The notes under the pieces: generated by a model
The model's input: the letters and a program-made list of their open reading frames with translations, nothing else
What the model was told of the DNA's origin: nothing
Databases searched by the model: none
Program-made: the position numbers and the translations under genes
Assembly: GCA_963708045.1 (NCBI GenBank)
Contig: OY970181.1
Location: forward strand, 387,740 to 451,739
DNA: 64,000 nucleotides
DNA from: an uncultured bacterium
Lineage (GTDB): Bacteria > Patescibacteriota > Patescibacteriia > CAIQCM01
Reading direction: 5' to 3'
Shown here: positions 5,231 through 55,202 of the stretch, piece by piece
Numbering within the stretch: the stretch's first letter is position 1
Layout of the letters: each line of letters starts with the position of its first letter

Positions 5231-5265
5231 GCTTTCCCGTGAACGAGGCGTGGTAGTTTGTTAAC

Positions 5266-5307
5266 GATTAAAAAACAAACCTCCCCGAGAGGAAGGTTTG
5301 TTTTTTG
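5266..5307. terminator. bidirectional intrinsic terminator (3' of rnpB on the minus strand)
   Basis: caaaccttcctctcggggaggtttg followed by a U-run on the minus strand. Its reverse complement also has a T-run on the plus strand. Confidence 0.6.
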
Positions 5308-5750
5308 TCCGTGCGTCTATAAGCCGAATTCTGTCATCAAGTTTGCTTTCGCAAAATTGAGCAATGGTTATCTATCTGGGATTCATATTGCTATGAACCT
5401 CAAGCGGCCGTACGGCCTTGCACCGAATAGGTGTTTGCACCGGCTGTCATCTCTGACAGTCCCGCGTGAGCTCTTACCTCACGATTTCACCCTTGCTTCT
5501 CCCGTTAAGGAGGTTAGCGGTATGTTTCTGTTGCGTTCCCTTAAGCGTTGCCGTCTAAGGGATACCTTATCTTGCGATAAGACTTTCCGTGGGCTTGGGA
5601 AAAAATTTCTCTCGCGAGAGGCGAAATCATTTCTTGCTCCCCGCCGCTGTTAGCGGCTATTACTTGCCTTACGCCTTGCGGCATAAGAGGTGTTCGGACT
5701 TTCCTAATCAATTCAAATAAATGAATTGAGCAACCATCCGACGCGCGGAC
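5308..5750 (-). ncRNA. rnpB: RNase P RNA (bacterial type A)
   Basis: Minus-strand conserved blocks: GGAAAGTCCGAACAC (P4 5' strand), GGGTGAAATCGTGAGGTAAGAGCTCACGC, GGTGCAAGGCCGTACGGCCGCTTGAGG, and ACAGAATTCGGCTTATAG (P4 3' strand). P1 pairs the 5' gtccgcgcgtc with the 3' gacgcacggac. The ORF 5258..5653 (+) on the track is spurious. Confidence 0.8.
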
Positions 5751-9042: not shown

Positions 9043-9128
9043 AAGATAGAGATAAGAATGTGGGTATTATACCGGCCTCTTGACAAAAAACCAAGTTTAG
9101 TGTAAATTAAGCGGTTAAATATAAACCT

Positions 9129-29974: not shown

Positions 29975-30046
29975 GGGCACGTAGCTCAGCGGTAGAGCGG
30001 ACGTCTTATACACGTCTGGTCCTAGGTTCGATCCCTAGCGTGCCCA
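29975..30046 (+). tRNA. tRNA-Ile with anticodon UAU (decodes AUA)
   Basis: 72-nt cloverleaf. Acceptor GGGCACG/CGTGCCC. Anticodon stem GACGT/ACGTC. Loop CTTATAC gives anticodon TAT. Confidence 0.75.
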
Positions 30047-39514: not shown

Positions 39515-41232
39515 ATGTCTCCACTCTCAAAAATAAAACAAGAAATCATCAACGCGATTGCCCAAGTTTATCCAAACTCAACTTTGGTTGTTTCGGATAT
39601 TGTTCCCGCGCCAAGTCCGGCGCTCGGTGACCTCGCCGTACCAATGTTTAAGCTCGTAAAAGTTTTAAGTAAGTCGCCGAGCGCGATTGCCGAAGAGCTT
39701 CGCGAAAAAATGCCGTCTTTAAAAACGATTCAGAGCGCCGAAGTTGCCGGGCCGTATTTAAATTTGCGCTTGAATCAATCAGTAGTCATAAACAACGTAA
39801 TGGCGGCCATTACCAAAGAAAAAGCAAAGTACGGCAACGGAAAAGCAACTAAGGAAAAAATAATGGTTGAATTTGTCGCGCCGAACATTAATAAGCCGCT
39901 TCACTTGGGACACCTTAGAAACGCCGCGCTTGGCGAATCACTCTGCCGGATTTTAGAAGCCGCCGGCAACACGGTTGTTCGCTCTAATTTACTAAGTGAC
40001 AGGGGTGTTGGTGTTGCCAAAGCGATGGTGGCCTACGAACATTTTGGTGGCAACGAAACGCCAAAAAGCTCGGGAATGAAAGGTGATCATTTTGTTGGAA
40101 AATATTACGTGATGTTTGAACAAGAAAAAGTTCGGCACCCAGAAATTGAAAACGAAGTGGCTGAGTCGCTTAGAAAATGGGAAGCGGGGGACAAGGCCAC
40201 GCGCGCTCTTTGGCGGGTAATGACCGACTGGTGCGTAAAGGGACAAAACGAAACGCTAAAAATGCTTGGCGTTAAATACGACAAAGTTTATCGCGAAAGC
40301 GCGTTTTATAATGAAGGCCAGAAAATGGTTTTGGCGGCCTTGGAAAAAGGGATTTTTTCTAAAGACGAAAAAGGAAACGTTGTCGCCAAACTTCCGAACG
40401 AACCTGATAAAGTTGTTCTTCGTGCTGACGGGACGGCCGTCTATATTACAACCGACTTGCCGCTTACGGTTAAAAAAATGACTGAATTCAAATTGTCGCG
40501 GTGCTTGTGGGTTGTTGGAATGGAACAAGACCAGCACTTGCGCCAGCTTACTGGTATTATGCGGCTTTTGGGTTACAGGTGGGTAGACGCGCTTGAACAT
40601 GTTTCTATGGGCACGTCGCTCTTCCCGAAGGCCGGATGAAGTCGCGCGAAGGCACGGTCGTGGACATTGATGAATTAGTAGAACACCTTTCCAAGCTCGC
40701 GGCGGCGGAAATTAAAGAGCGCCACGACTTTTTGGATCAAGCCGAAGTGGACAAGCGCGCCGAAGAAATCGCTCTTGGCGCGGTTAAGTTTTATTTGTTG
40801 TCAGTTACGGCGACGAGCGGAATGACTTTTAATCCAAAAGAGTCGTTGTCCTTTAACGGCAAGACTGGTCCGTATTTGCAGTATACAAATGCACGCATTG
40901 CTTCTATTTTGCGCAAAGCCGCTCATGATAAAATAAAAATTGGCCGAATTGACGCCTCTAAACTTATTGAGCCGACGGAGTGGCAGCTTGTTTTGCGCTT
41001 GTCTGAGTTTGCCGATGCTATAGAAGCGGCCGCAAGCGGTCGCGACCCTTCGGTAATTGCCCGATATTGTTACGATCTTTCAAAATCATTCGCCGAATTT
41101 TACGAAAACGTTCCGGTTATAAAAGCCGAAGCAATATTTCGCTCCTCGCGGCTCGCGCTTTCGGCCGCCGTCGGGTTGGTGCTTGGTCGTAGTTTGGAAC
41201 TGCTCGCCATCCCCGCGCCAAAGGAAATGTAG
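39515..41232 (+). CDS. argS: arginyl-tRNA synthetase, interrupted by a 1-nt frameshift near 40636 (two ORFs 39515..40639 and 40636..41232)
   Basis: N-terminal Arg_tRNA_synt_N, HLGHLRN (HIGH-like), and catalytic core in ORF1. KMSKS-equivalent MKSREG plus DALR anticodon-binding domain (YLQYTNARIASILRKA) in ORF2. The frame shifts inside the ccggatgaag run. Confidence 0.8.
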
Positions 41233-41753: not shown

Positions 41754-42512
41754 AATGTGTACCACTATATTTACGATTCATTTTTAACCGATCCCAAATA
41801 CGCAAAGATCCTTGGTAATATAGAAAATCGGCTGACGGACTTGGGAATTTTTGGCAGCGTTCATCGCCTGGCGCTTTTTAAGTCAATGAAGGGCGCGATT
41901 AGCGACGCCGTGCGCCGCGGCGCAAAAACGGTCGTGATTGTCGGCGACGATCTTTCGGTTGCCAAAGCCGTTGACGCGATTCCCGAGTTTAAAGACGCGA
42001 TTTTTGGGATTATGCCAATTGGCACGAAAAACAACATCGCCGAACTTTTGGGTATTCCGATTGGCGAAGCCGCTTGCGACACACTCTCGGCGCGGCTTAT
42101 TGAAGAATTGGATTTGGGCAAAGTAAATAATCATTATTTTTTGACTTCGCTTCGCGTGCCGGGTGTTGTGAAAGCCGAGTGCGACGGGCGCTATACGGTT
42201 TCGCCGATTTCTGCCGGTGAAATCTGTGTGAATAATTTTTCTATTGATGGTTCGGCTTCTAACCCGCGCGACGGCTTGCTTGAAACAATGGTCAAGACAA
42301 CCAAGCGAAATTTTTTTGGTTCGCTTTTTGCTCGCACGCCAGCGGCGGCGAGTGTTAGTGTTTTTCCCGTGGAGAAAGCAATTATACGTTCTGGTAATGG
42401 CGAAGAGGTAACAGGGATGGCCGATGGTCAAGCAATTTCCGACGCTGAATTTCGCGTTGAAGTGATGCCGCGGCATTTTAAAGTGATTGTCGGCAAAGAA
42501 CGGAAGATATGA
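41754..42512 (+). CDS. DAGK_cat-family lipid kinase-like protein (degenerate GGDGT motif: VGDDLS)
   Basis: IFGIMPIGTKNNIAELLGIP and LDLGKVNNHYFLTSLRV match the DAGK_cat conserved blocks. Probable GTG start at 41754; the track ORF from 41661 overlaps bactofilin. Confidence 0.5.
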   Translation, partial: NVYHYIYDSFLTDPKYAKILGNIENRLTDLGIFGSVHRLALFKSMKGAISDAVRRGAKTVVIVGDDLSVAKAVDAIPEFKDAIFGIMPIGTKNNIAELLGIPIGEAACDTLSARLIEELDLGKVNNHYFLTSLRVPGVVKAECDGRYTVSPISAGEICVNNFSIDGSASNPRDGLLETMVKTTKRNFFGSLFARTPAAASVSVFPVEKAIIRSGNGEEVTGMADGQAISDAEFRVEVMPRHFKVIVGKERKI

Positions 42513-43420
42513 GCAAATACGTTGACTTGCACGCGCATACGACCTATTCCGACGGCCATGATACGCCGTCGGAGGTTGTTAAAATGGCGGCCGAGCAAAA
42601 TGTTTCAATTCTCGGCATCGCCGATCATGACAATTTGGAAGGTTTAAAAGAAGCGCTTGTGGCTGGCAAAAAATATGGCGTCAAAATTGTTTGCGGTGTG
42701 GAAATATCAACCGTCTTTCATAATTCAACTATTCATTTGCTTGGTTACGGCTTGCCATTAGATGACGCCGCGTTTAATAGTTTTTTGTCGGGCATTTATT
42801 GACAAAGAAAAAATCGATTGCTTGAGGTTGTTAAAAAATTAAACGAAAAATTTAATGTCGAAGGGCGGCGGGTGGTGAATCTTAAAGATTATGAAAATAC
42901 GCTGGGAAAATATTTTAATTTTGAAAAAACAGCGCAATATTTAATCGTCAACGGTTTTTTTACGGATTTTGAAAAAACTAGAAAATTGCTCATTGGCTTA
43001 AGTGATGGTGGGGGATATTTTGTTTCTGTTGCTGATGCAATACGGGCTGTTCACGAAGCCAATGGGCTTGCAATTTTGTCGCATCCTTTTGCTCGCGGCA
43101 CGTCGCTTAAAAAAATTGATCCGACGCCGGCGGGGCAAGAGGTATTGCTTAAAGAAATAATCGCGGCGGGTATAGACGGGATGGAGTGTTATCAGTCGGA
43201 ATACGGCCCCGAAGAAACGGCGCTCGCCCTCGCGCTCGCCCTGAAATATAATTTATTGGTATCGGCTGGAAGCGATTGGCACGGCGCGATTTGCGACATT
43301 CCAGGGGATATGAAAGACCGAAAATCTTTTTATCCCGAGCATGTCGGCGGGTTAAAGATTGCGCCACAAACAGTCGCGCCGTTCCTTGAACGCCTTGGCA
43401 TAAACGTTGACAAGGATTAA
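42509..43420 (+). CDS. PHP-domain phosphoesterase with in-frame TGA at 42800-42802 (ORFs 42509..42802 and 42818..43420 are the same frame)
   Basis: N-terminal DLHAHTTYSDGH and C-terminal SAGSDWHG PHP motifs. The single TGA reads ...FLSGIY*QRKNRLLEVVKKL... and the frame is conserved across it. Confidence 0.65.
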
Positions 43421-43457
43421 AAATTTTAGCATAATCTCCTCAGTAACAAAGAAGTAA

Positions 43458-43543
43458 GCTCGGGTGGTGAAATGGTATACACGCTACCTTGAGGTGGTAG
43501 TACCCGTAAGGGTGTGGAGGTTTGAGTCCTCTCCCGAGCACCA
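43458..43543 (+). tRNA. tRNA-Leu (anticodon GAG), CCA encoded
   Basis: 86 nt with long variable arm. Anticodon loop TTGAGGT. Acceptor GCTCGGG/CCCGAGC. 3' ACCA. Confidence 0.85.
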
Positions 43544-43576
43544 AAAAATCCTACCTATTTGGGTAGGATTTTTTGT
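43544..43576 (+). terminator. intrinsic terminator after tRNA-Leu
   Basis: aatcctaccta ttt gggtaggatt plus TTTTT. Confidence 0.6.
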
Positions 43577-43671
43577 ATTGAGATTTCTGAAAGACAAAGA
43601 CGTTTTGTAATGTGGATAATTTGTGATTAAAGGATATTGACGATCTTGATATTATGCAGTAAGGTGGCGGT

Positions 43672-44250
43672 ATGTTAATAAAAGAGTTTGCACAAGTTAT
43701 CGGTGGTTATGTCTTTCGGGAAGCGATACAGCCGGATAATAACGGCGATATCTGTGTTTTTCAAGCCAAAGACCTCACTGCTGGCGAAGCTATTGAAAAC
43801 GTTGGTACACTTACAAAAATTTCTTATAACATCCCCGAGTACGCCGGTCATCTTAAAAAGAACGACATTTTGGTTGTCGCTCGGGGTATGAGGTCAGGGT
43901 CATTTCGGTCGGCGGTTTTTGTTTCCGACGCACCAAACGTAATCGCCTCGTCCTCCATCCACATAATTCGGATAACCGCCGCTGGCGTAATGCCGGAATA
44001 TGTTTCGCGGTATCTTAATTCAAAAATTGGCCAAGACGCGCTTACGCAGATCGTTTCCGGTTCGTATATCGGCTCCCTGCCGCGTAAGGAAGTGGAAAAA
44101 ATAAAGATCCCCATCCCGACACTAGAAAAACAAAAAGCAGTTGTGGATCTGGATCGGAATATACGTGAGCAAGAAAAAATTATCAACCGTCAGAGCGAAA
44201 TAAAGCACAATCTTATGAACGCAATCTTTACCAGCCTAGCCGCTAAATAA
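43672..44250 (+). CDS. hsdS: Type I restriction-modification specificity subunit, half-size (single target recognition domain)
   Basis: 192 aa: one TRD plus the conserved C-terminal helix region typical of HsdS halves. Confidence 0.65.
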   Translation: MLIKEFAQVIGGYVFREAIQPDNNGDICVFQAKDLTAGEAIENVGTLTKISYNIPEYAGHLKKNDILVVARGMRSGSFRSAVFVSDAPNVIASSSIHIIRITAAGVMPEYVSRYLNSKIGQDALTQIVSGSYIGSLPRKEVEKIKIPIPTLEKQKAVVDLDRNIREQEKIINRQSEIKHNLMNAIFTSLAAK

Positions 44251-44255
44251 ATATT

Positions 44256-45770
44256 ATGCCAACTGAAAAAAAATACACTCAGGAAGACTTAAACAAAACG
44301 CTTTGGGCGGCGGCTGATTCGTCACGCAGCAATGTGGACGGTGGTGTTTACAAGGATTACGCCCTCACGATGCTATTTTTAAAATACGTCAGCGATTTGA
44401 ATAAAAAGCGCTACGCCGAGTATAAGGCGCGTTTTAAGAACGACGAAAAGCGCGTTGAAGAAAAAATGAAGCTGGATCGCTTTTATCTTCCTCCTAAGTC
44501 GTCGTTTGATTACATCTACAGTAAGATTGAGGAAGACAACATTGGCGAAGAAATTAATAAAGCGCTACACCGCATTGAAGACGCCAACAAGGAAAAGCTG
44601 GACGGCGTGTTTAGTGTGGACTTTAATTCTGAATCAGTACTGGGAAAATTGGATTCGCGCAATAAAATGCTCCGCCATCTTATTCAGGATTTTGCCAAGA
44701 TTGACCTTTCGGATGTCGGCGACGACATTATCGGAAATTCGTACATGTACATGATTGAACGCTTTGGCGCCGATGCTGGGAAGAAAGCCGGAGAATTTTT
44801 CACAACTAAATCCGTGGCGCGGCTCGTGGCGATGCTCGCTGAACCAAAAGAAGGCGACCGGATTTCCGACCCTGCTTGTGGATCGGGCGGCTTGCTTCTT
44901 TTGGCTGGCGAAGAGGTTGAAAAGAAAGGCTCAAAAAACTACGCGCTTTATGGTCAAGAATCAACTGGCTCCACTTATCAGCTTGCACGGATGAATATGT
45001 TCTTGCACGGCAAAGACTCGGCGCGGATTGAATGGGGCGACACGCTTAATAACCCACTCTTGGTTGAAAATGACCAGCTTATGCATTTTGATGTGGTCGT
45101 TGCCAATCCGCCGTTCTCGCTTAAAAAGTGGGGCGCCGAACACGCCGGATCAGATAAATACAACCGTTTTTGGCGCGGCATTCCGCCCAAGGACAAAGGC
45201 GACTTTGCCTTTATTACTCACATGGTGGAAACCGCCAAACCCAAAACCGGCCGCGTGGCCGTTATTGTTCCGCACGGTGTACTTTTTAGGAGCGGTGCCG
45301 AAGGTAAAATCCGCACCGAGCTATTAAAAGAAAATATCATTGATACCGTGATCGGATTACCTGCTGGTTTATTTCAGACAACCGGTATCCCGGTCGCCGT
45401 TTTGGTTATTGACCGCTCACGCGAAAAAGGCGGCGCGAATGAAAAGAAGAAAGATGTTTTGTTCATTGAGGCCTCTAAGGAATTCAAACCCGGAAAAGCG
45501 CAAAACACCTTGACCGACGAAAACATCGCCAAAATTTTTGACACCTACAAACAACGCAAAAATATCACTAAGTTTTCACGCAAGGTTGAATTAAAGGAAA
45601 TTGAAGAAAATGATTTCAATCTCAACATCACACGCTATGTTGACACCTTCATTGAAGAAACTCCGATAGACATCAAAGCCAACCTCCGTGAACTCGCCGC
45701 CCTTGAGCCGGAGCTTAAGAAGCTAGAAAAACAGATGGATGAGTATCTAAAAGAGCTTGGAATTAAATAG
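44256..45770 (+). CDS. hsdM: Type I restriction-modification DNA methyltransferase subunit (N6-adenine)
   Basis: HsdM N-terminal domain, then an N6_Mtase domain with NPPF motif (VVANPPFS). Confidence 0.9.
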   Translation: MPTEKKYTQEDLNKTLWAAADSSRSNVDGGVYKDYALTMLFLKYVSDLNKKRYAEYKARFKNDEKRVEEKMKLDRFYLPPKSSFDYIYSKIEEDNIGEEINKALHRIEDANKEKLDGVFSVDFNSESVLGKLDSRNKMLRHLIQDFAKIDLSDVGDDIIGNSYMYMIERFGADAGKKAGEFFTTKSVARLVAMLAEPKEGDRISDPACGSGGLLLLAGEEVEKKGSKNYALYGQESTGSTYQLARMNMFLHGKDSARIEWGDTLNNPLLVENDQLMHFDVVVANPPFSLKKWGAEHAGSDKYNRFWRGIPPKDKGDFAFITHMVETAKPKTGRVAVIVPHGVLFRSGAEGKIRTELLKENIIDTVIGLPAGLFQTTGIPVAVLVIDRSREKGGANEKKKDVLFIEASKEFKPGKAQNTLTDENIAKIFDTYKQRKNITKFSRKVELKEIEENDFNLNITRYVDTFIEETPIDIKANLRELAALEPELKKLEKQMDEYLKELGIK

Positions 45771-45773
45771 TCT

Positions 45774-47588
45774 ATGAAAATTTCATCATTAGAAATTAAA
45801 GACTTCCCGCCAATTAAAAATCTAAAGATGGAAAATCTTGGGGATATTGTAATTATTGCTGGAGCAAATGGTTCGGGGAAAAGCAGACTTAAAGAGGCTA
45901 TAGTAAGTACCTTTCAAGGTGGGAATCAAATGTCCATCTCTTTGCTGGCAACAAGAGAAAAAGAAAATGAAGATTTTGGAGGAGGTACTCTAACTGCTAC
46001 ACAAGGGGTTGCAAGTCAAACGCTAGCTGAGTATATGAGGAAGAGGCGGTATGGCCGTGGCCAGTATGTTGGTTCTCTGGTCCAAATAGATTCGCAACGA
46101 AATATTCAGACCACTCAATACCCACAGGTTAGTTGGCAAGTTTCTGATCCAGATGAAGTCGAAACGCCAAGTACTTTTTATTATCAAAATTTTACCAACA
46201 GGTGGCAAGACTTCATGACTTATATTCATAAAAAAGTAGCTGCCTACCAAAATCAACTAGCTACGGAAGTTATCAATGGGTCAGAAATAACAGCAAAGAC
46301 TATTAAGGAAAAATTGCCACACCCACTACAGAAATATAAAGAAATCTTTAAAACTCTACTTTCGGAAAAAGAGCTTCTTGATATTGATCCATTATCACCT
46401 CGTGAATTTCAATACCGGGATAAAACCGGCGTAGTCTTACCATTTAATTCCTTAAGTTCTGGCGAGCAAGAAGTTGTTAAGATTCTGTTTGATGTTGCAA
46501 GGAAAGATATAAAAGACTCGGTAATTATTGTGGATGAGCCTGAACTTCATTTACACCCAACTCTTACATTCAAATTAATTGAAGCTCTTAAATCCGTGGG
46601 GGATCACACAAATCAATTCATATTTTTGACACACTCTGCTGATTTAATTTCTACCTATTACTCGACTGGTAATGTTTATTTTATAGACTCAGAGCAGGGT
46701 GGCGCTAACCAGGCACATAGGCTAAGCGATCTTAATCACAGCCATAAGGAGCTGGTAAGCTTGATAGGTGAAAATCTTGGGCTGTTTGCAGTAGGAAAAA
46801 AACTTGTATTTGTTGAAGGTGAAGATTCTAGTACGGACAGGCTTGTATACCATGCATTGGCACAAAAGTATTTGCCAGAGGCAAAGGTCATACCCGTTGG
46901 TTCAGTTGAGAATTTGATTACTTTAAATGTTTTTGAGCGGCAGATTAGAAATTCTATATTTGGAATTGACCTATATATGGTCCGAGATAAAGATGGGCTA
47001 TCTACTACTCAAATTAGCGCTCTTGAAGATGGTGGTAAGATAAAGTGTCTTAGGAAAAGACATATTGAAAATTATTTTCTTGATTCAGATGTTTTGTTTA
47101 AAGTTGCGGAAAAGCTTTATATAACCACTACAAAACCTACTGTTACACATCAGTATATTGAAGAACAGCTTAAAATCATTGCTTCTGAACAAGTTAGTCT
47201 TAACTTACTTCAAAATACAAAAGAATATATAGCAACAAATCATAACTTTGATATTCCTACTGTCAAATCACTTGATACAAAAAATTGCGTTGATGTGGTT
47301 AATGAGTTCTCTTTTGAAATAGCGAGTGTTTTACATAGCCTTGTGTCTAACCTGTCTGACGTAAAGTTGAAAGAATGGATGAACGGAGAAAAAGAAAGAC
47401 TTGATGGCGCGTTGACCAGCGATAAGTGGAAAGATGAATTTAGGGGTAAAAATATTTTCTCAAAGTTATGTAGTGATGTCCTTGGTGAAGATAAAATCAA
47501 AATACGACAAGTATATATTGACGTTGCTTTGAATGAAAAACCGGAAGTTTTTAGTGATATTAAAGGAATACTGGAAAGTTTTAAGTGA
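45774..47588 (+). CDS. OLD-family-like ABC-ATPase + TOPRIM-like nuclease (Gabija GajA-like architecture), embedded in the hsd operon
   Basis: Walker A IIAGANGSGKS, signature-like LSSGEQEV, Walker B IIVDEPELHLHP, and H-loop FLTHS. C-terminal TOPRIM-like Glu (FVEGEDSSTD) and DxD (YMVRDKDG). Start is 3 nt after the hsdM stop, and the stop overlaps the next hsdS start. Confidence 0.65.
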   Translation: MKISSLEIKDFPPIKNLKMENLGDIVIIAGANGSGKSRLKEAIVSTFQGGNQMSISLLATREKENEDFGGGTLTATQGVASQTLAEYMRKRRYGRGQYVGSLVQIDSQRNIQTTQYPQVSWQVSDPDEVETPSTFYYQNFTNRWQDFMTYIHKKVAAYQNQLATEVINGSEITAKTIKEKLPHPLQKYKEIFKTLLSEKELLDIDPLSPREFQYRDKTGVVLPFNSLSSGEQEVVKILFDVARKDIKDSVIIVDEPELHLHPTLTFKLIEALKSVGDHTNQFIFLTHSADLISTYYSTGNVYFIDSEQGGANQAHRLSDLNHSHKELVSLIGENLGLFAVGKKLVFVEGEDSSTDRLVYHALAQKYLPEAKVIPVGSVENLITLNVFERQIRNSIFGIDLYMVRDKDGLSTTQISALEDGGKIKCLRKRHIENYFLDSDVLFKVAEKLYITTTKPTVTHQYIEEQLKIIASEQVSLNLLQNTKEYIATNHNFDIPTVKSLDTKNCVDVVNEFSFEIASVLHSLVSNLSDVKLKEWMNGEKERLDGALTSDKWKDEFRGKNIFSKLCSDVLGEDKIKIRQVYIDVALNEKPEVFSDIKGILESFK

Positions 47589-48820
47589 TTATGAAAATTA
47601 ATAAACCACAAACAAACATACCTCATGGTTGGAATTTTTATAAACTTAGCGATCTCCTTACTGTTGTTGTAGATAATCGTGGTAAAACACCGCCTATTCA
47701 AACAAGTGGGATCCCTATGGCAGAGGTAAATGCTATTGGCGATAAGAATATTGAATATTCTGAAATAACTAAGTTTGTTAGTGAAGAAACTTATAAAACA
47801 TGGTTCCGTAAACATTTAGAGAAAAATGATATCCTCTTTTCTACCGTTGGAAGAACTGCGTCTTGCTCTCTTTATACTGCAAAAATAAAGACGGTAATTG
47901 CTCAAAATTTAATAGGGTTAAGATTCGGAAAAGATAATCCTGAGTTTATGTTTTATCTTTTAACCCAAGACAAGAACAATCAACAATTTAAGAATATTGA
48001 GATGAACGCCGCACAGCCAAGTGTTAAAGTATCCCAAATGATACGACTTGAATTTTTGCTTCCACCCCTCCCCGAACAAAACCGGATTGTTGCAGTATTG
48101 GAAACTTGGGATAAGGCGATTGAAAAATTGGCGGAAAAAATTGAGATTAAAAAAGAGATTAAAAAAGTTTTAATGCAAGAATTATTGACAGCCCAGAAGC
48201 GTCTAATCGGATTTAAAGATAAATGGGCGAACGTAAAACTTGCTGATATTGCTGAAATTTTTTCGGGAGGAACGCCCGATACAAGCAATCAGGATTTCTG
48301 GAGTGGTGAGATAAATTGGATAACTCCGACAGAAATTACTAAAACAGGCAAATATATAGTATTAGAAACAGAGAAGAAGATCACAGGCGCTGGTCTTAAA
48401 AATTGCTCAGCAAAATTACTACCTAAAAATTCTTTGGTCATATGTACTCGTGCGACGGTTGGAGAATGTTCAATTTCTACATATCCAATTTGCACAAACC
48501 AGGGATTTAAAAATTTAGTTCCTAAGAAAAATACAACAGTTGAATATCTGTATTATTTTATTAAGTCAATTAAATCAAAACTTATAAAACTAGGATCCGG
48601 TAGTACTTTTCTTGAAGTCTCAAAGGGTGACATTGAAAAATTAAAATTATATCTACCACCACTAACTGAGCAAATTGCGATTGCAAATATTTTGACCACA
48701 GCCGATAAGGAAATTGCTGAACTCGAAAAAACCCTCTCACTTTTAGAAGAACAAAAAAGATATCTTCTTAACGAACTGATTACTGGTACAATCAGAACAC
48801 CTGAAACATTATCAGTCTAA
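47585..48820 (+). CDS. hsdS: Type I restriction-modification specificity subunit (two target recognition domains)
   Basis: 411 aa with two TRDs separated by conserved helical repeats (LPPLPEQNRIV / LPPLTEQIAIA). Confidence 0.85.
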   Translation: MIMKINKPQTNIPHGWNFYKLSDLLTVVVDNRGKTPPIQTSGIPMAEVNAIGDKNIEYSEITKFVSEETYKTWFRKHLEKNDILFSTVGRTASCSLYTAKIKTVIAQNLIGLRFGKDNPEFMFYLLTQDKNNQQFKNIEMNAAQPSVKVSQMIRLEFLLPPLPEQNRIVAVLETWDKAIEKLAEKIEIKKEIKKVLMQELLTAQKRLIGFKDKWANVKLADIAEIFSGGTPDTSNQDFWSGEINWITPTEITKTGKYIVLETEKKITGAGLKNCSAKLLPKNSLVICTRATVGECSISTYPICTNQGFKNLVPKKNTTVEYLYYFIKSIKSKLIKLGSGSTFLEVSKGDIEKLKLYLPPLTEQIAIANILTTADKEIAELEKTLSLLEEQKRYLLNELITGTIRTPETLSV

Positions 48821-48830
48821 AAATAACAAT

Positions 48831-49670
48831 ATGAAAAAAGTACTATCCGCCATCAATCATCCGGCCATGTTTGAACAGTCCGAGGTTTGACGGGTTTGGC
48901 ATAAAGAGCAATGGTTTTTTGCGATAAACGATGTGGTTGGGGTTTTGTCGCAAACCTCAAATGTTACCGATTATATTAAGAAAATGAGGCAGCGTGATGC
49001 TGAATTAGCCAAAGGGTGGGGACAGATTGTCACCCCCCTTTCCGTTAAAACAAAAGGCGGCGTTCAAAAGCTCAATTGTGCCAGTCTAGCCTCTATTTTT
49101 CGCATTGTTCAGTCAATTCCTTCGCCACAAGCTGAACCTTTTAAGCGTTGGTTGGCAAAAGTTGGGGGCGAGCGGATAGAAGAAATGCAGAACCCCGAAC
49201 TTGCGCTTAACCGTTCTCGTGAATATTGGAAAAAGCATGGCCGAAGCGAAAAATGGATTCAACAAAGAATGATGGGACAAGAATCTCGCAATAGGCTGAC
49301 GGATTACTGGAAACAGACAGGGGTTAAGGAGGGACAGGAATATGCCGTGCTCACGAATATTATCCATCAAGAATGGAGCGACTTGAGCGTAAAAGATCAC
49401 AAAGCGCTTAAGGGGTTGTCCAAGGTCAATAATTTACGCGACCATATGAATGAGGCCGAGCTAATTTTTACAGCTTTGGCAGAGCTTTCTACTAGGCAGA
49501 TTGCTGAGACGGAAAAAGCCATCGGGTTTGATGGAAATAAGTCGCCAGCCTTGCGCGGAGGACAAATTGCAAAGAATGCACGCTTGGCGCTTGAGGAAAA
49601 AACTGGAAAACGAGTAGTGAGCGGAGAAAATTATTTAACAGGCGGACGGAAAACAAAACGATTAAAGTAA
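48831..49670 (+). pseudogene. Bro-N/DinD-like (KilA-N-type) DNA-binding domain protein with in-frame TGA at 48888-48890
   Basis: Translation from ATG 48831 gives MKKVLSAINHPAMFEQSEV*RVWHKEQWFFAINDVVGVL. The segment after the TGA resembles the Bro-N/DinD N-terminal motif (IR..xxxxxWFxAxDV). The track ORF starts only at GTG 48933. Confidence 0.5.
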
Positions 49671-49674
49671 TCAT

Positions 49675-52600
49675 ATGTTAGAAAACGTACACTTTGACGA
49701 AGCACGGCAATCGCAACTCCCCGCCTTGGAGCTGCTTTTGGCGATGGGATACAAATATATTTCAGCAGAAGAATGCTTACGCCAGCGTGGAGGTGATACG
49801 AGTAATTTTATCCTTACAGATATTGCCGCTGAAAAATTGATGGCGATCAATGGGTATGAGATTAACGGGGTAGAATCAAAATTTAGCGAAAAGGATGTTC
49901 GGGATGCGATTGATGAGTTGGAACATATTCAATATGAAGGACTGATTGATACAGCGCAGAAAATTTATAATATCGTTATGCCGACTTCGGGGGGGAAAAC
50001 GATCAAGGTAAGCGTTGGCGGAAAAACAGTATCTAAAAATTTTCGTTTTATTGATTTTCAAAACCCACGGAATAACACTTTTCATGTGACGGCCGAATTT
50101 GAGGCTTCGGGTAAGCAGAATATTCGGCCGGATATTGTTTGTTTTGTTAATGGTATTCCGCTTGCAGTCATTGAGAACAAAAAATCAAGCGTTGATGTTG
50201 TTGAGGCATTAAACCAGATGAACCGGAACCAAGGGGCTGAATTTTGTCCCAAGCTTTTTACCTACACACAGTTACTCGTGGGAACGAACGGCAAAGAACT
50301 TAAATATGGCACGACCGGAACGCCGAATAAGTTTTATGCGGTTTGGAAGGAAAAGGGGATGACAGATGACGAAATTGAAAGCGAAGTCGTTTCGGTCATG
50401 CAAAAGAAAATTTATTTAAATGATTATAACAATGTCTGCGATGACCTAAACGGTGATACACGCGATGCTTTACCGCAATCGGTTCGTTTAGTTACGGAAC
50501 AGGACAAAGGGATCGTATTTTTGTTTAAGCCGGAGCGGCTTCTTGAACTAACCAAGAACTACATTCTCTTTGATGCCGGAGTTAAAAAGCTTTCCCGTTA
50601 TCAGCAGTTTTTTGCGATCAATAAAATGATGGCGCGTATTTTTGAGGAGGAAGCATCGCCAGTAGGCGGCGAACGGCGGCATGGCGGTTTAGTATGGCAT
50701 ACGCAAGGGTCAGGCAAATCGCTTACAATGGTTATGTTTGTAAAAGCGTTAATTGAGAACCCGCACATTATCAACCCGCGCGTTATTATTGTTACTGATC
50801 GTCGGGATCTTGATAAACAAATCAGGGATACATTTAAGAATTGCAATTTAAAAAAAGAAGTTATACAGGCGACCAGCGGCCAGCATTTGCTTGGTCTGAT
50901 TAATGACAAAAATCTTGCCGTAATTACGACCCTCGTACATAAGTTTGAATCGGCCTCAAAGAAAAAGACCGGTTTAGTTGACTACGATAAAAATATTTTT
51001 GTCTTGGTTGACGAAGCGCACCGCAGTCAAAACGGCATTGCGAACATTGAGATGAACCGGATTATTCCGAACGCTTGCTATATCGGTTTTACCGGTACGC
51101 CGCTCATGACCTCGGAAAAAGAAAGCTGGAAAAAGTTCGGCGGCTACATTGACCGCTACACAATTGACGACGCTTTGGCCGATAAAATTATTTTGCCGCT
51201 CATCTACGAGGGGCGGTATGTGGACATGGTGCAAAACGAAGAGCAGGTTGATCGCCAAGTTGAGCGGATCACCGCCGACCTAAACGACAAGCAAAAGCGC
51301 GATCTGCAAAAATATATTGGTTCAAGGATTGTCAAAGATAATCCTCAGCGCATCGTAGAAATTTCATACGACATTGAAAAGCACTATATAAGGAACTTCC
51401 AAAACACCGGCCTAAAGGCGCAAATTGTCGCGCCGTCCAAATTTTCGGCCATTCTTTTCCAAAAGTTCTTTCAGACGAACGGCAAAATTCGCACCGCTGT
51501 CGTAATTTCCGATGAACACGACGATGGCGACGAAGCTGATACTCACAAAAAAGAAGTGGTTGATTATCTTAATACCGTGCGGAAAAACCACAGTAGCGTT
51601 GAAAGTTATGAGAAAGAAGTAATCAATAGCTTTAAAAACAATGAAGACGGGATTGAGATAATTATCGTTGTTGATAAACTGCTGACGGGTTTTGATGCGC
51701 CCAGAAACACGGTGCTGTACTTGGCCGAAGACTTGCGCGATCATAATCTGCTTCAAGCCATTGCCCGCGTCAATCGTTTGTTTGAAAACAAAAAACTTCC
51801 CAAGACGGCGGGATATATTATTGATTACTCGGAAAACGCCAAGAATATTGATACGGCGATGAAACTCTTCGGCAATTACGACAAGGATGACGTTAAAGGG
51901 ACGCTTATTGATGTTAAAGAAAAGGTGGAGGAATTGGAACAGAGCTATGCGCTAGTGCATGATCTTTTTGGCGGCATAAAAGGATCGTCCGACGACGAAG
52001 CTTTTTTGCGCGTTCTTTCAGACGATCCTAAGCGCGAAATGTTTTATAAGTCGCTCGCCGCGTTCATTAAAAACCTAAATGAATGTTTTGTTCTTCAGGA
52101 TTTTGTGCATGAATTCAAACATTTGGATATATATACGCGCGAGCTTAAAAAGTTAATGGAACTTAGGAAGGCGGCGAGCTTAAAATATGCCGATCGCATT
52201 GACTTGGCCGAATACAAACAGTCGCTCGTTAATATCCTTGATAAATATATTGATGCTCGTGGTGTTGAGTTATTAACCAAGCAGATCAATATTACTGATC
52301 GTAAGCAGTTTGAAGAAGCTATTGATACTTTAGGTTCGGACAGGTCAAAGGCGGAGGCGATTGCCATGCAAACTAATAAAACTATTAGCGAAAAAATGGA
52401 GACTGATCCAGAATTCTATGAACGGTTCTCTAAAAAAATTGATCTTATTCTGCAAGAGATGCGCCAGGGCAAGTTAGCCGATGTTGCCGCGCTTAAACAG
52501 CTAAAGTTGATTAAAGACGATGTGATTAATAAGAAAGATAACGACCTGCCTGAACCAATTGTCGCTCTTAAAGGGTCGGATGTCTTTTATCGCAACCTGC

Positions 52601-52863
52601 GGGATTGCTTTGTTTTGTTTAAACTACCCGACGACTTATATATTGCCATTATTTTGGATATTTTTAATCTGGTTAAGCGTGAGGCGATTGTTGATTGGTA
52701 TAAAAACCTTGACGCCAAGCGTCAGATTATTAATAAGCTCGACGACTATCTTTATGATGTCGTTAAGAACGAGAAAAAAATTGATTTGTCCGACGACAAT
52801 ATGAAGTTAATTATTTCAAGCGTGCTTTCGCTCGCAGAAAATAATTATGAGCTCTTTGTTTAG
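49675..52863 (+). CDS. hsdR: Type I restriction enzyme R subunit (helicase-nuclease)
   Basis: N-terminal nuclease region. SF2 helicase motifs (TQGSGKSLTMV, DEAHRSQ) and HsdR C-terminal domain. 1062 aa. Confidence 0.9.
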   Translation: MLENVHFDEARQSQLPALELLLAMGYKYISAEECLRQRGGDTSNFILTDIAAEKLMAINGYEINGVESKFSEKDVRDAIDELEHIQYEGLIDTAQKIYNIVMPTSGGKTIKVSVGGKTVSKNFRFIDFQNPRNNTFHVTAEFEASGKQNIRPDIVCFVNGIPLAVIENKKSSVDVVEALNQMNRNQGAEFCPKLFTYTQLLVGTNGKELKYGTTGTPNKFYAVWKEKGMTDDEIESEVVSVMQKKIYLNDYNNVCDDLNGDTRDALPQSVRLVTEQDKGIVFLFKPERLLELTKNYILFDAGVKKLSRYQQFFAINKMMARIFEEEASPVGGERRHGGLVWHTQGSGKSLTMVMFVKALIENPHIINPRVIIVTDRRDLDKQIRDTFKNCNLKKEVIQATSGQHLLGLINDKNLAVITTLVHKFESASKKKTGLVDYDKNIFVLVDEAHRSQNGIANIEMNRIIPNACYIGFTGTPLMTSEKESWKKFGGYIDRYTIDDALADKIILPLIYEGRYVDMVQNEEQVDRQVERITADLNDKQKRDLQKYIGSRIVKDNPQRIVEISYDIEKHYIRNFQNTGLKAQIVAPSKFSAILFQKFFQTNGKIRTAVVISDEHDDGDEADTHKKEVVDYLNTVRKNHSSVESYEKEVINSFKNNEDGIEIIIVVDKLLTGFDAPRNTVLYLAEDLRDHNLLQAIARVNRLFENKKLPKTAGYIIDYSENAKNIDTAMKLFGNYDKDDVKGTLIDVKEKVEELEQSYALVHDLFGGIKGSSDDEAFLRVLSDDPKREMFYKSLAAFIKNLNECFVLQDFVHEFKHLDIYTRELKKLMELRKAASLKYADRIDLAEYKQSLVNILDKYIDARGVELLTKQINITDRKQFEEAIDTLGSDRSKAEAIAMQTNKTISEKMETDPEFYERFSKKIDLILQEMRQGKLADVAALKQLKLIKDDVINKKDNDLPEPIVALKGSDVFYRNLRDCFVLFKLPDDLYIAIILDIFNLVKREAIVDWYKNLDAKRQIINKLDDYLYDVVKNEKKIDLSDDNMKLIISSVLSLAENNYELFV

Positions 52864-53578
52864 CGGAAAAAAGGAATTTATTTTTGGTTCGTTTGCATAT
52901 CATTACGACCTTGTAATGCAAGACCGAAAAACGTTTAGCCTTACAGTTAAGCCTGATCTTGGTATAACCTTAAAATGTCCACATAGTGCCGGAGAAGAAC
53001 GGGTTGAAAACTTCCTAAAGAAAAAATGGTTTTGGCTTGAGAAGCAGTTGTCATTTTTTAAAAAATATCAACGAAAGGTATATCAAAAGGAATATATTTC
53101 AGGAGAGGGATTTTTGTACCTAGGCAAGCAATATACGTTGATGATAAAAAAAGCGTCCGAAGACAGAGTATCTCTAGTCAAGGGGATTATGCTGGCACAA
53201 ACAAAATTTGGTACAAGCGACATGTTGCATACACAAATATTATTACGCGATTGGTATTTTGACAGGATTTCTAAAATATTTTTTGAACGTTTTAAAAAAG
53301 TGTTATCGTATTTTGATTATAAAAATGTTCCCCCTTTGAGGATAAAATATATGCAAAAACGGTGGGGGAGTTATTTGGACGAAAAAATGATAATTTTAAA
53401 TCCAAAATTGATTCACGCGCCCAAGGAATGCATTGATTATGTAATTACTCACGAGCTTTGTCATATTAAATACAAAGAACACAATAAAAATTTTTATAAA
53501 TTACTAAGCGAGAAATATCCCAAGTGGGAGAAAGCTAAAGAAAAGCTGGAAATAATCGGAACACACGAAATACCTTAA
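52847..53578 (+). CDS. DUF45/YgjP-like M48-family zinc metallopeptidase (WLM-type), commonly hsdR-associated
   Basis: HExxH motif ITHELCHIKY. 243 aa. Overlaps the hsdR stop by 17 nt. Confidence 0.75.
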   Translation: MSSLFSGKKEFIFGSFAYHYDLVMQDRKTFSLTVKPDLGITLKCPHSAGEERVENFLKKKWFWLEKQLSFFKKYQRKVYQKEYISGEGFLYLGKQYTLMIKKASEDRVSLVKGIMLAQTKFGTSDMLHTQILLRDWYFDRISKIFFERFKKVLSYFDYKNVPPLRIKYMQKRWGSYLDEKMIILNPKLIHAPKECIDYVITHELCHIKYKEHNKNFYKLLSEKYPKWEKAKEKLEIIGTHEIP

Positions 53579-53617
53579 AGTGGGATTTTTTAATAGAAAT
53601 GCTATCATTAACTTTCT

Positions 53618-54547
53618 ATGGGCATTGCTGAAATATTTGTGATCGTTCTTGGGCTGACGTTGTTTGAGATTGTCTCATCAATTGATAACGCGGTTATTAA
53701 TGCCGACGTGCTTACGACGATGTCGGCGAAGGCACGGCGGTGGTTTCTTGTTTATGGAATTTTTATCGCCGTCTTTGTCGTCCGCGGTCTTTTGCCACTC
53801 CTCATTGTTTATTTTTCTACGCCCGGCCTCGGACTTTGGAACGCGCTTTCGGCCACCTTTAGTTCCGACCCCAAGGTTCTAGAAATTATAGAAAAACAAA
53901 CGCCGGTTTTGCTCGCGGGCGGCGGTCTTTATTTGGTTTTTCTATTTTTGCACTGGCTCTTCATTGAAAAAAAGGAATATGCTTTCTTTTTTGAACGCCA
54001 CGTTCACGAGAAGATGTATTTTTGGTTTTATTCGCTGGCCTCGGTGATTTTGTTGGTGCTGGTTTGGCTCACAATGAAAATAAATCCAATGATCGCTTTG
54101 GGTACGGTCGTTGGTTCCACAGCATTTTTCATTACGAACGGCTTTAAGCACAATGCCGAAGAAACGGAAAAACGGCTAATGGCGGGAAGCGGGCTTTCGG
54201 ACTTAAGCAAAATTATTTATCTGGAAATTATTGACACGACTTTTTCTATAGACGGCGTTTTGGGCGCGTTTGCTTTTACCGTTTCCATCCCGCTCATTCT
54301 TATTGGAAACGGCTTGGGCGCGTTTGTTGTTCGTTATATAACCGTGCACGGAATCGCGACGGTTAAAAAATACCGCTATCTTAAAAACGGCGCCATGTAT
54401 TCGGTCGCCGCGCTTGGCGTGGTGATGATTATGGAAAGTTTGGCCGTTCACGTTTATACGCTGTTACCACCGCTCATCACCGTCGTTGTTATTGGACTTT
54501 TCTTTTGGCTTTCGGTTCGCGAGTTAAAAATTAAAAAGGTGATATAA
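53618..54547 (+). CDS. TerC-family integral membrane protein
   Basis: Multiple TM helices with the hallmark DNAVI (EIVSSIDNAVINADVL) motif near the N-terminus. Confidence 0.6.
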   Translation: MGIAEIFVIVLGLTLFEIVSSIDNAVINADVLTTMSAKARRWFLVYGIFIAVFVVRGLLPLLIVYFSTPGLGLWNALSATFSSDPKVLEIIEKQTPVLLAGGGLYLVFLFLHWLFIEKKEYAFFFERHVHEKMYFWFYSLASVILLVLVWLTMKINPMIALGTVVGSTAFFITNGFKHNAEETEKRLMAGSGLSDLSKIIYLEIIDTTFSIDGVLGAFAFTVSIPLILIGNGLGAFVVRYITVHGIATVKKYRYLKNGAMYSVAALGVVMIMESLAVHVYTLLPPLITVVVIGLFFWLSVRELKIKKVI

Positions 54548-54576
54548 AAAAGATCCCGCCAAAGCGGGATCTTTTA
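54546..54576 (+). terminator. intrinsic terminator
   Basis: agatcccgc caaa gcgggatct plus TTTT. Confidence 0.6.
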
Positions 54577-54578
54577 AT

Positions 54579-54651
54579 TGCACGCTGTAGGGATCGAACC
54601 TACGGCCTTCTCCGTGTAAAGGAGTTGCTCTACCGCTGAGCTAAGCGTGCG
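54579..54651 (-). tRNA. tRNA-Val (anticodon UAC)
   Basis: 73-nt cloverleaf on the minus strand. Acceptor CGCACGC/GCGTGCG. Anticodon loop TTTACAC. T-loop GGTTCGATCC. Confidence 0.85.
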
Positions 54652-55041
54652 AAACAAGTTGCCTCTTTAAACTAACAGAATAGCCTATTTTTTTCCAGTC
54701 CTTGTCATTATTTATATGATTGTGTAGGATAAGTTTGATTCGGTTGTCGCTTTTCGTCATACCCGAAAAGATATGCAACTGATGCTTTCAAGATCAAAGA
54801 AGGTGCCGGTTTGGAGATCCACTGCGATCTTCAGACAATGGCCAAAACTAAAAGTGGATCTGAGTGCAAAGATCCACACAGGCGTACTACCCGTGAGGTA
54901 CCAATGATGCAACGCGGACGACCACAACTTTCCACTTCTTCTCAAACCCTACGATGACAACCGCGACCGCCGTAAAAGGAGGTGATGCCAATGCCTGATT
55001 CCGTTGTCGGGTTTCCGTAGCGCACAAATCAAAACGTATAA

Positions 55042-55069
55042 GCCGAGGAGGTATGACCTCGGTTTTTTC
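55042..55069 (+). terminator. orphan intrinsic terminator at the end of a ~400-nt ORF-free region
   Basis: ccgaggaggtatgacctcgg plus TTTTTT. No upstream + strand gene. Confidence 0.5.
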
Positions 55070-55202
55070 GTATTTATTTTATGCCCTCCCCCGAGTGCGG
55101 GGGAGGGGTTGGGGAGAGGGTTGTTTATTTTTTTTGCGATTTGCGTTAAACTCGGCTTGGTTTTGGCACTGCTTCGCACGTTCATTTTAGGAGGGAAAGT
55201 TC

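Follow-up and report, generated by a model that had tools for sequence, protein, structure and literature searches.

Defence genes are commonly embedded in Type I restriction-modification (R-M) loci, and the PDC families were defined from genes embedded in R-M, BREX and DISARM loci (10.1101/2024.01.29.577857). PARIS senses Ocr and exists in a fused form (PMC9122126), and its component AriB is a tRNA-Lys nuclease (PMC11464382). Defence by HEC-04 needs its Walker A motif and its TOPRIM metal site (10.1101/2024.01.29.577857), and in the RRDM island of enteropathogenic Escherichia coli (EPEC) an M48 peptidase follows hsdR (PMC12255303). Specificity (S) subunits with a single target recognition domain (TRD) act as homodimers on symmetric sites (PMC3874165). 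Here, we describe a locus that combines counterparts of these elements in a 64,000-nt stretch of contig OY970181.1 (hereafter the window, whose first letter is position 1). It is probably a single Type I R-M operon, about 10 kb long and horizontally acquired, in a small genome that is probably of Patescibacteria; accessory defence genes are embedded in it, one of which encodes a 604-aa AriAB-like protein.

An R-M operon inserted between native genes

The GTDB species representatives include no close relative of the window (best ArgS 46% identical), and comparable sites lacking the operon were reached through DUF475 homologues and exact-protein matches. Homologues of the DUF475 protein of the window are 79-88% identical in metagenome assemblies and 66-75% identical in named Patescibacteria (Uhrbacteria, Magasanikbacteria, Colwellbacteria). 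Three contigs found in this way, L178 and L179 (DUF475 88% identical) and L180 (79%), share with the window the upstream order TyrRS, ArgS, bactofilin, DAGK-type lipid kinase, PHP phosphoesterase and tRNA-Leu(gag), and the downstream order DUF475 and tRNA-Val(tac). None of the three has R-M genes between tRNA-Leu and DUF475, where the gap holds only a 101-aa open reading frame (ORF; L178 and L179) or 64 nt (L180). Window positions 43404-43574 are 83-86% identical to these contigs, and nucleotide homology to L178 extends to 43574, where the terminator hairpin of tRNA-Leu ends, and restarts at 53607. Since the flanking gene order is preserved in L178, L179 and L180 although the operon is missing there, the R-M operon is an insertion of approximately 10.0 kb (43575-53606). 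The 101-aa ORF of L178 (6865-7170) and L179 (3265-3570) encodes a predicted small membrane protein at the site of the R-M operon, and it is without counterpart in the window or L180. The features of the region are as follows.

43458-43543, + strand: tRNA-Leu(GAG), native backbone, left neighbour of the insertion (ARAGORN)
43542-43575, + strand: tRNA-Leu terminator, a perfect hairpin with 14-nt arms followed by a T run (inverted repeat I15), the last native sequence before the insertion
43575-53606, + strand: the insertion, about 10.0 kb, comprising a single R-M operon and its own promoter region (empty-site comparison)
43672-44250, + strand: half-size hsdS, 192 aa, one TRD and one dimerisation helix (Pfam Methylase_S; PADLOC Specificity_I)
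44256-45770, + strand: hsdM, predicted N6-adenine DNA methyltransferase, 504 aa (HsdM_N and N6_Mtase, E = 2e-98)
45774-47588, + strand: AriAB-like ABC ATPase with a divergent DUF4435/TOPRIM region, 604 aa (PADLOC AriAB; AAA_15/AAA_21)
47585 (GTG) or 47591 (ATG) to 48820, + strand: full-size hsdS, two TRDs (Methylase_S matched twice, E = 1e-47)
48831-49670, + strand: Bro-N/DinD-like gene of 279 codons, PDC-S13, with a TGA at 48888-48890 (codon 20)
49675-52863, + strand: hsdR, predicted restriction/translocase subunit, 1062 aa (HSDR_N, SWI2_SNF2, T1R_D3)
52847-53578, + strand: YgjP-like (DUF45/M48-type) zinc peptidase, 243 aa (PF01863, E = 6e-50), the last gene of the operon, overlapping hsdR by 17 nt
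53618-54547, + strand: DUF475/TerC-family membrane protein, 309 aa, a native backbone gene outside the inserted operon
54579-54650, - strand: tRNA-Val(UAC), a native gene and no island boundary

ARAGORN identified both tRNA genes, and tRNA-Val was also confirmed by Rfam. Between them lie eight ORFs, all on the + strand, whose successive junctions measure +5, +3, -4 (or +2), +10, +4, -17 and +39 nt. HsdM scores 268 bits against TIGR00497 (cut-off 243) and contains the NPPF motif ('VVANPPFS' in the translation). HsdR scores 483 bits against TIGR00348 (cut-off 285), and it has a SWI2_SNF2/ResIII translocase domain, a PD-(D/E)xK motif ('PDIV...IENKK') and a 'DEAH' box. The full-size HsdS is matched by PADLOC Specificity_I along its full length. 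At gene level, HsdM, the two-TRD HsdS and HsdR are thus predicted to make up a complete Type I R-M system. The YgjP-like peptidase gene stands directly after hsdR in five further loci (L081, L082, L174, L175 and L177) and closes the operon, as in many Type I loci. A role for YgjP as a protease that frees a nuclease domain was considered and found no support, given that YgjP also follows hsdR where there is no AriAB, in L177 and the EPEC island.

The DUF475/TerC gene has a GC content at third codon positions (GC3) of 0.51, similar to the backbone, is absent from all six related R-M loci, and is a conserved backbone gene of Patescibacteria. Because DUF475/TerC and tRNA-Val belong to the native backbone, tRNAs do not bound the island on both sides. 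The tRNA-Val(UAC) segment (54572-54654) is on the minus strand in the window and on the plus strand after DUF475 in L178, L179 and L180; its reverse complement is 98% identical to the L178 copy, which amounts to an inversion of about 80 nt without obvious cause. The approximately 550 nt beyond it (54651-55200) contain no convincing ORF, a G-rich run at about 55087-55125 and a hairpin with a T run at about 55043-55066, and no Rfam model matches this interval at gathering thresholds.

An earlier note on this DNA had described a defence island here, a Type I R-M operon of composite make-up with accessory genes embedded in it. The synteny comparison with the three related contigs shows the operon to be foreign to this position, and the Pfam and PADLOC matches bear out the operon itself; the tRNAs, gene order, tight junctions and in-frame TGA in Bro-N were each found as the note described. 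The boundaries are different: the note placed them at the two tRNAs, about 11 kb apart, and counted TerC/DUF475 as an island gene, which is contradicted by the extent of the absent segment (43575-53606), by homology to the related operon of L177 that covers only 43621-53569, and by the lack of DUF475 in the six related R-M loci.

A conserved chassis with exchanged cargo

Comparison with L177, a Joint Genome Institute (JGI) metagenomic contig, separates the operon into two kinds of component. The half-size HsdS (87.5% aa identity), HsdM (97%), HsdR (94%) and YgjP (75%) are shared, with 85-86% nucleotide identity across 43621-45779 and 49669-53569, and homology sets in within the promoter region, about 50 nt before the half-size hsdS start, and runs to the stop codon of ygjP. 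The interval from hsdM to hsdR, which in the window holds AriAB, hsdS and Bro-N, is filled in L177 by a DUF6119/TIGR04141 gene and another hsdS. The full-size hsdS of the window matches those of L177 and L175 only in the conserved helices. The L177 gene (2830-4332) encodes a 500-aa DUF6119/TIGR04141 'sporadically distributed' protein in the hsdM-hsdS slot and is itself a candidate defence gene, for which PADLOC has no model.

Related operons that carry AriAB have the following identities to the window protein and gene orders (M, S and R, hsdM, hsdS and hsdR; S1/2, half-size hsdS).

L174: AriAB 84% aa identity; M-AriAB-S-DUF4145-R-YgjP
L081: AriAB 83% aa identity; M-AriAB-S-S49 protease-R-YgjP
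L175: AriAB 81% aa identity; S1/2-M-AriAB-S-R-YgjP
L176: AriAB 73% aa identity; M-AriAB-S-R
L082/L083 (Gracilibacteria): AriAB 65% aa identity; S1/2-M-BroN-AriAB-S-R-YgjP

The six AriAB homologues that are at least 65% identical and whose contigs were readable all sit between hsdM and hsdS, and none of the five at 43-58% identity has Hsd neighbours. The AriAB-bearing operons fall into three chassis, among which HsdM is only 32-40% identical; in L081 and L174, for example, AriAB is 82-84% identical to that of the window, but HsdM is only 36-40% and HsdR 28% identical. Since three unlike chassis all hold AriAB between hsdM and hsdS, the gene has moved among chassis while keeping its position. 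The R-M slot also holds unrelated cargo, namely DUF6119, DUF4145/PD-T7-4-like and S49 protease genes. These comparisons show the operon to be modular, with hsdM and hsdR-ygjP as a conserved chassis and a 'cargo gene + hsdS' unit exchanged between chassis, and the full-size hsdS appears to travel with the embedded cargo. The exchange would presumably proceed by homologous recombination in the conserved 3' end of hsdM and in the conserved parts of hsdS and hsdR.

Base composition was compared with a backbone GC3 of 0.467 +/- 0.047 in the window. AriAB (0.28, z = -4.0), the full-size hsdS (0.26, z = -4.4) and ygjP (0.34) lie 2.7-4.4 standard deviations below the backbone, and the half-size hsdS, hsdM, Bro-N, hsdR and DUF475 are backbone-like, all within +/-1.1 z. 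The compositional difference that the earlier note had looked to is therefore found in three genes and not in the other five, giving a mosaic that agrees with the cargo exchange seen against L177. Cargo and hsdS are also AT-richer (lower in GC3) than hsdM and hsdR in L177, L082, L081 and L174, as they are in the window.

The 604-aa protein as a putative single-chain PARIS

The best PADLOC match of the 604-aa protein is the fused-PARIS AriAB model PDLC02981 (202 bits, E = 3.7e-60, residues 160-571). The next families (PtuA, AbiLi, Old, GajA) reach at most 99 bits, with Old at 59 bits, and HEC-01A gives E = 6e-17; the original PARIS rule used thresholds of 80 or 20 bits (PMC9122126). The ATPase domain matches AAA_21 (E = 1.4e-18) and AAA_15 (E = 2.8e-18). 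Across 101 homologues the ATPase motifs are invariant or nearly so (Walker A G30-K36, LSSGEQE 227-233, Walker B D254/E255 and H-loop H287), and of the TOPRIM acidic residues, E348, D355 and D407 do not vary and D405 hardly does. E348 would correspond in position to the AriB active-site residue E26 cited in PMC11464382. Collinear homologues of about 30% identity carry DUF4435 (L094, 28.6 bits against a cut-off of 27; L133, 23.5 bits), and an hhalign comparison of the C-terminal profiles of the 604-aa family and the DUF4435-bearing homologues gave a probability of 100% (E = 3e-46, 272 columns). The AlphaFold model (mean predicted local distance difference test score, pLDDT, 78) comprises an ABC head, a helical insert, a four-stranded alpha/beta domain and a helical tail. 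By operational definition, these profile matches make it a putative fused, divergent PARIS-type protein, whose kinship to the E. coli AriA and AriB is distant.

The family yielded 643 matches at E < 1e-10; of the best 120 listed, nearly every one is 603-609 aa long. Members occur in bacteria of the candidate phyla radiation (CPR), DPANN archaea, Bacilli, Pseudomonadota and Bacteroidota. Scans of JGI metagenomes and IMG/VR with the AriAB profile returned mostly homologues of at most 58% identity without Hsd neighbours, the exceptions being three or four very distant partial matches (L159, L161, L162, L173). Because the IMG/VR viral matches are distant only, there is no sign of a phage-borne AriAB clade at 65% identity or above. 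The AriAB-bearing R-M operons of L175 and L176 adjoin large serine recombinases and T5orf172/PDC-S57 genes (L175 16015-18075; L176 2572-4212 and 14152-14718), which suggests that some copies of the operon ride on mobile elements; the window copy has none.

The half-size hsdS and the Bro-N/DinD-like gene

The half-size HsdS matches a PADLOC Specificity_I model of 208 positions. It is present at full length upstream of hsdM in four loci, the window, L177 (87.5% identical), L175 (46%) and L082 (34%), and this conservation indicates that it is a component of the system and not a remnant. By inference from described single-TRD subunits, it may homodimerise and thereby provide a second, symmetric specificity.

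The Bro-N/DinD-like gene lies between hsdS and hsdR and matches PDC-S13 (PDLC04920, E = 1.2e-94). Its frame begins with the ATG at 48831 and is interrupted by the TGA at codon 20, so that the longest ORF left has 245 aa and misses the beginning of Bro-N; with the N-terminus put back, the full Bro-N domain matches with E = 7e-11. Arginine occupies the TGA position in 13 of 13 close homologues, and a Logan contig with an identical AriAB (ERR15459707) has a 279-aa Bro-N gene called at the same coordinates. No exact match to the 279-aa Bro-N protein was present in the protein collection, whichever of R, G, W, C, L or S was placed at the stop position, and a homology search did not return the intact Logan version. 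Thousands of homologues of about 280 aa are annotated as Bro-N, antirepressor-like or DinD; the gene is absent from L175 and L177. In L082, a member of a different PDC-S13 subfamily (9082-9954, E = 7e-101) stands between hsdM and AriAB, and the 717-position PADLOC HsdS model PDLC03083 matches this protein over residues 13-284. It follows that some HsdS proteins have a Bro-N/DinD-like module fused at the N-terminus, a hint that this module is functionally tied to HsdS. The Bro-N/DinD-like PDC-S13 gene is a candidate defence gene, inactivated (or mis-sequenced) here by an Arg-to-stop change.

Two native genes upstream of the operon are also disrupted. In the window, argS (39515-41232) is split into ORFs of 374 and 198 aa by an apparent 1-nt deletion near 40615-40625 and is a single 573-aa ORF in L178, so that either the assembly is in error at this point or an essential gene has become a pseudogene. 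The PHP phosphoesterase gene (42509-43420) contains an in-frame TGA at 42800-42802 and is intact in L178 (292 aa). Since both are broken here and intact in L178, the Bro-N stop may be either a recent mutation or an assembly error. Recoding of TGA (code 4 or 25) was considered and rejected: TGA ends 7 of 49 long ORFs, and reading it as sense merges only PHP (and Bro-N). In this DNA, TGA serves as a normal but infrequent stop codon and is not recoded across the genome. The earlier note had seen turnover in the interrupted Bro-N gene and the two hsdS genes. The second part of that argument fails with the conservation of the half-size hsdS in four loci (34-88% identity), and turnover is seen instead in the exchange of cargo and hsdS against L177.

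Elsewhere in the window, a tRNA-Ile with the anticodon UAU, unusual in bacteria, lies at 29975-30046, and a bacterial class A RNase P RNA lies at 5304-5749 on the - strand (155 bits); the listed ORF overlapping the latter (5258-5653) is spurious.

Discussion

We propose a model in which HsdM, HsdR and two alternative S subunits would form a methylation-dependent first line of defence, with the AriAB-like protein as a backup. By extension from two-protein PARIS, the latter would sense phage anti-restriction proteins, such as the Ocr/ArdA-type DNA mimics that disable Type I enzymes, and sensing would switch on the TOPRIM nuclease against host tRNA or another nucleic acid, leading to growth arrest and aborted infection. 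Since ATPase and nuclease form one chain, activation would have to be conformational or oligomeric, with no AriB release.

Several observations weigh against this interpretation. Pfam DUF4435 (PF14491) has no match on residues 323-604 even at E <= 1. The family profile matches E. coli AriA (8ux9/8v45) weakly (E = 2.7e-8, residues 132-295), no better than it matches UvrA or PtuA, and E. coli AriB is unmatched at E <= 10. A sequence search of the PDB with the C-terminal profile returned noise only, and the isolated C-terminal model (pLDDT 84) found nothing below E = 0.06 in the PDB with Foldseek. The whole model lies nearest to the retron-Eco8 effector, PtuA and OLD, with template modelling (TM) scores of at most 0.42 (0.32-0.42 for the retron-Eco8 effector and Thermus OLD). 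A fusion protein cannot follow the published route to activation, in which AriB is set free, and both the trigger and the target suggested above are drawn by analogy with PARIS. With argS, PHP and Bro-N, three disrupted genes fall within about 9 kb, which places the quality of the sequence in doubt. Finally, neither a recombinase nor repeats accompany the operon.

The Foldseek matches to the retron-Eco8 effector, PtuA and Thermus OLD invite another view of the 604-aa protein, as a DNA nuclease of the OLD family (class 1) or of the retron-effector kind that rides in the R-M slot as a passenger and would answer to a trigger other than anti-restriction, such as RecBCD inhibition or DNA ends. The best NCBIfam match, below threshold, is retron_eff_Eco8, JGI labels homologues 'OLD family endonuclease', an N-terminal ABC ATPase with a C-terminal TOPRIM domain in one chain is the architecture of OLD, and the same slot hosts unrelated cargo. 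However, the PADLOC score for Old is far below that for AriAB (59 against 202 bits), the C-terminal domain is homologous to DUF4435-bearing proteins, and the structural matches, with root-mean-square deviations of 7-19 A, reflect mainly the shared ABC fold, so that we regard this alternative as rather improbable. A latent nuclease held by HsdM2S in the manner of PrrC, firing when the R-M enzyme is inhibited, is in our judgement unlikely, if still plausible. It would account for the fixed position of all six close homologues in three chassis and for AriAB-hsdS gaps of 0-17 nt or overlaps, which fit stoichiometric co-expression, and PrrC itself, an R-M-embedded tRNA-Lys nuclease that likewise joins ATPase and nuclease in a single chain, provides the precedent (PMC12707154). 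The homologues at 43-58% identity nevertheless stand without Hsd genes, so the fold can work alone, and a specific fit between proteins is made less likely by AriAB proteins of 82-84% identity beside HsdM proteins only 36-40% identical to each other.

A further alternative concerns the island as a whole. If the entire tRNA-Leu to tRNA-Val interval of about 11 kb, TerC included, were a classical tRNA-targeted island moved by site-specific recombination, as the earlier note supposed in pointing to tRNA genes as integration hotspots, the position of the operon beside a tRNA gene would be expected, and an 11,137-bp Logan contig does break inside both tRNAs. Such breaks, however, are expected at tRNAs from repeats or strain variation in assembly graphs. 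The ORFs of 43.4-55.9 kb include no integrase, recombinase or transposase gene, there is no tRNA-derived direct repeat (att site) in 42.5-56.5 kb, where short repeats occur at chance level only, and no repeats were found bracketing 43575-53606. DUF475 and tRNA-Val are present at the empty sites, and for five of the six related operons the flanking sequence retrieved contains no tRNA. We therefore consider a tRNA-targeted island highly improbable, and return to an R-M operon inserted between native genes, with a putative PARIS-type backup among its cargo.

A more speculative extension, which we hold only tentatively and think unlikely to be correct as a whole, is that the clade of at least 65% identity and constant length (604 aa) constitutes a distinct 'R-M-locked' single-chain PARIS. 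Its members would be co-translated with HsdM and HsdS, guard M2S in the style of PrrC, be activated unlike published PARIS, and travel with hsdS as a swappable 'specificity + guardian' cassette among Type I chassis in Patescibacteria and other lineages.

The exchange of cargo, together with a clade tied to one junction, could explain how a fused PARIS is activated without subunit release. Patescibacteria and the CPR largely rely on R-M systems, and the locus provides a cleanly delimited natural example of layered defence, in which restriction and a proposed anti-anti-restriction backup share one transcription unit.

Much of what the locus contains is already known elsewhere, including R-M-embedded ABC-ATPase nucleases, PrrC, fused PARIS, HEC-04, the PDC families, the M48 tail and half-size S subunits. 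With PARIS (PMC9122126; PMC11464382) the 604-aa protein shares an AAA_15/AAA_21 ABC ATPase, a DUF4435-type TOPRIM nuclease region, and conserved Walker A/B and TOPRIM E...DxD residues, and the 'anti-anti-restriction' backup role of PARIS suits a place inside a Type I R-M operon. In contrast to the two-protein system, the window protein is one 604-aa chain whose C-terminal domain falls below Pfam detection of DUF4435 and does not match E. coli AriB; its close clade is fixed between hsdM and hsdS, whereas PARIS is found in P4 and P2 hotspots, and its host is a Patescibacteria-like genome. PrrC of the Type IC system EcoprrI (PMC12707154) is likewise a single-chain ABC-type NTPase and nuclease inside a Type I R-M operon and a suicide backup when restriction is blocked, and the published PARIS effector and PrrC both target tRNA-Lys. 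PrrC, however, lies between hsdS and hsdR and carries an anticodon-nuclease domain and no TOPRIM, and we claim homology to PrrC for the ABC fold only.

The EPEC RRDM (RptR-RMS-DarTG-M48) island (PMC12255303) and the 'guilt-by-embedding' survey (10.1101/2024.01.29.577857) offer the closest parallels in layout. The window shares with them same-strand cargo within hsdM-hsdS-hsdR and an M48/YgjP-type peptidase after hsdR, the slot is described as a recombination hotspot, and PDC-S13 is a candidate family from the survey. The cargo of the window is different, with AriAB in the hsdM-hsdS slot and PDC-S13 in the hsdS-hsdR slot; the window operon showed no RptR-like regulator, and an additional half-size hsdS stands at its head. 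HEC-04 (10.1101/2024.01.29.577857) is similarly a single-gene ABC ATPase-TOPRIM protein embedded in another defence system, although that system is Hma, and the PADLOC HEC models fall far below AriAB for the window protein (HEC-01A 6e-17 against 3.7e-60). Ronin, an hsdS-hsdM decoy with the RonA toxin (10.1101/2023.04.06.535777), couples Type I parts to an abortive effector triggered by anti-restriction proteins, a role that the AriAB-like protein may fill here by analogy; unlike the window locus, with its complete R-M gene set, Ronin lacks hsdR and its toxin is a 61-aa membrane protein. The half-size hsdS resembles the EcoDXXI deletion derivatives and Type 1 1/2 methyltransferases (PMC3874165) in its length of about 190 aa with one TRD and one dimerisation helix and in its expected homodimerisation on a symmetric bipartite site, and differs from them in being natural, conserved in four loci and placed beside a full-size hsdS. 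To these systems, the present locus adds an empty insertion site, a comparison of chassis and cargo with sharp breakpoints, and a PARIS-like clade that, in genomes of the CPR type, is tied to the junction of hsdM and hsdS.

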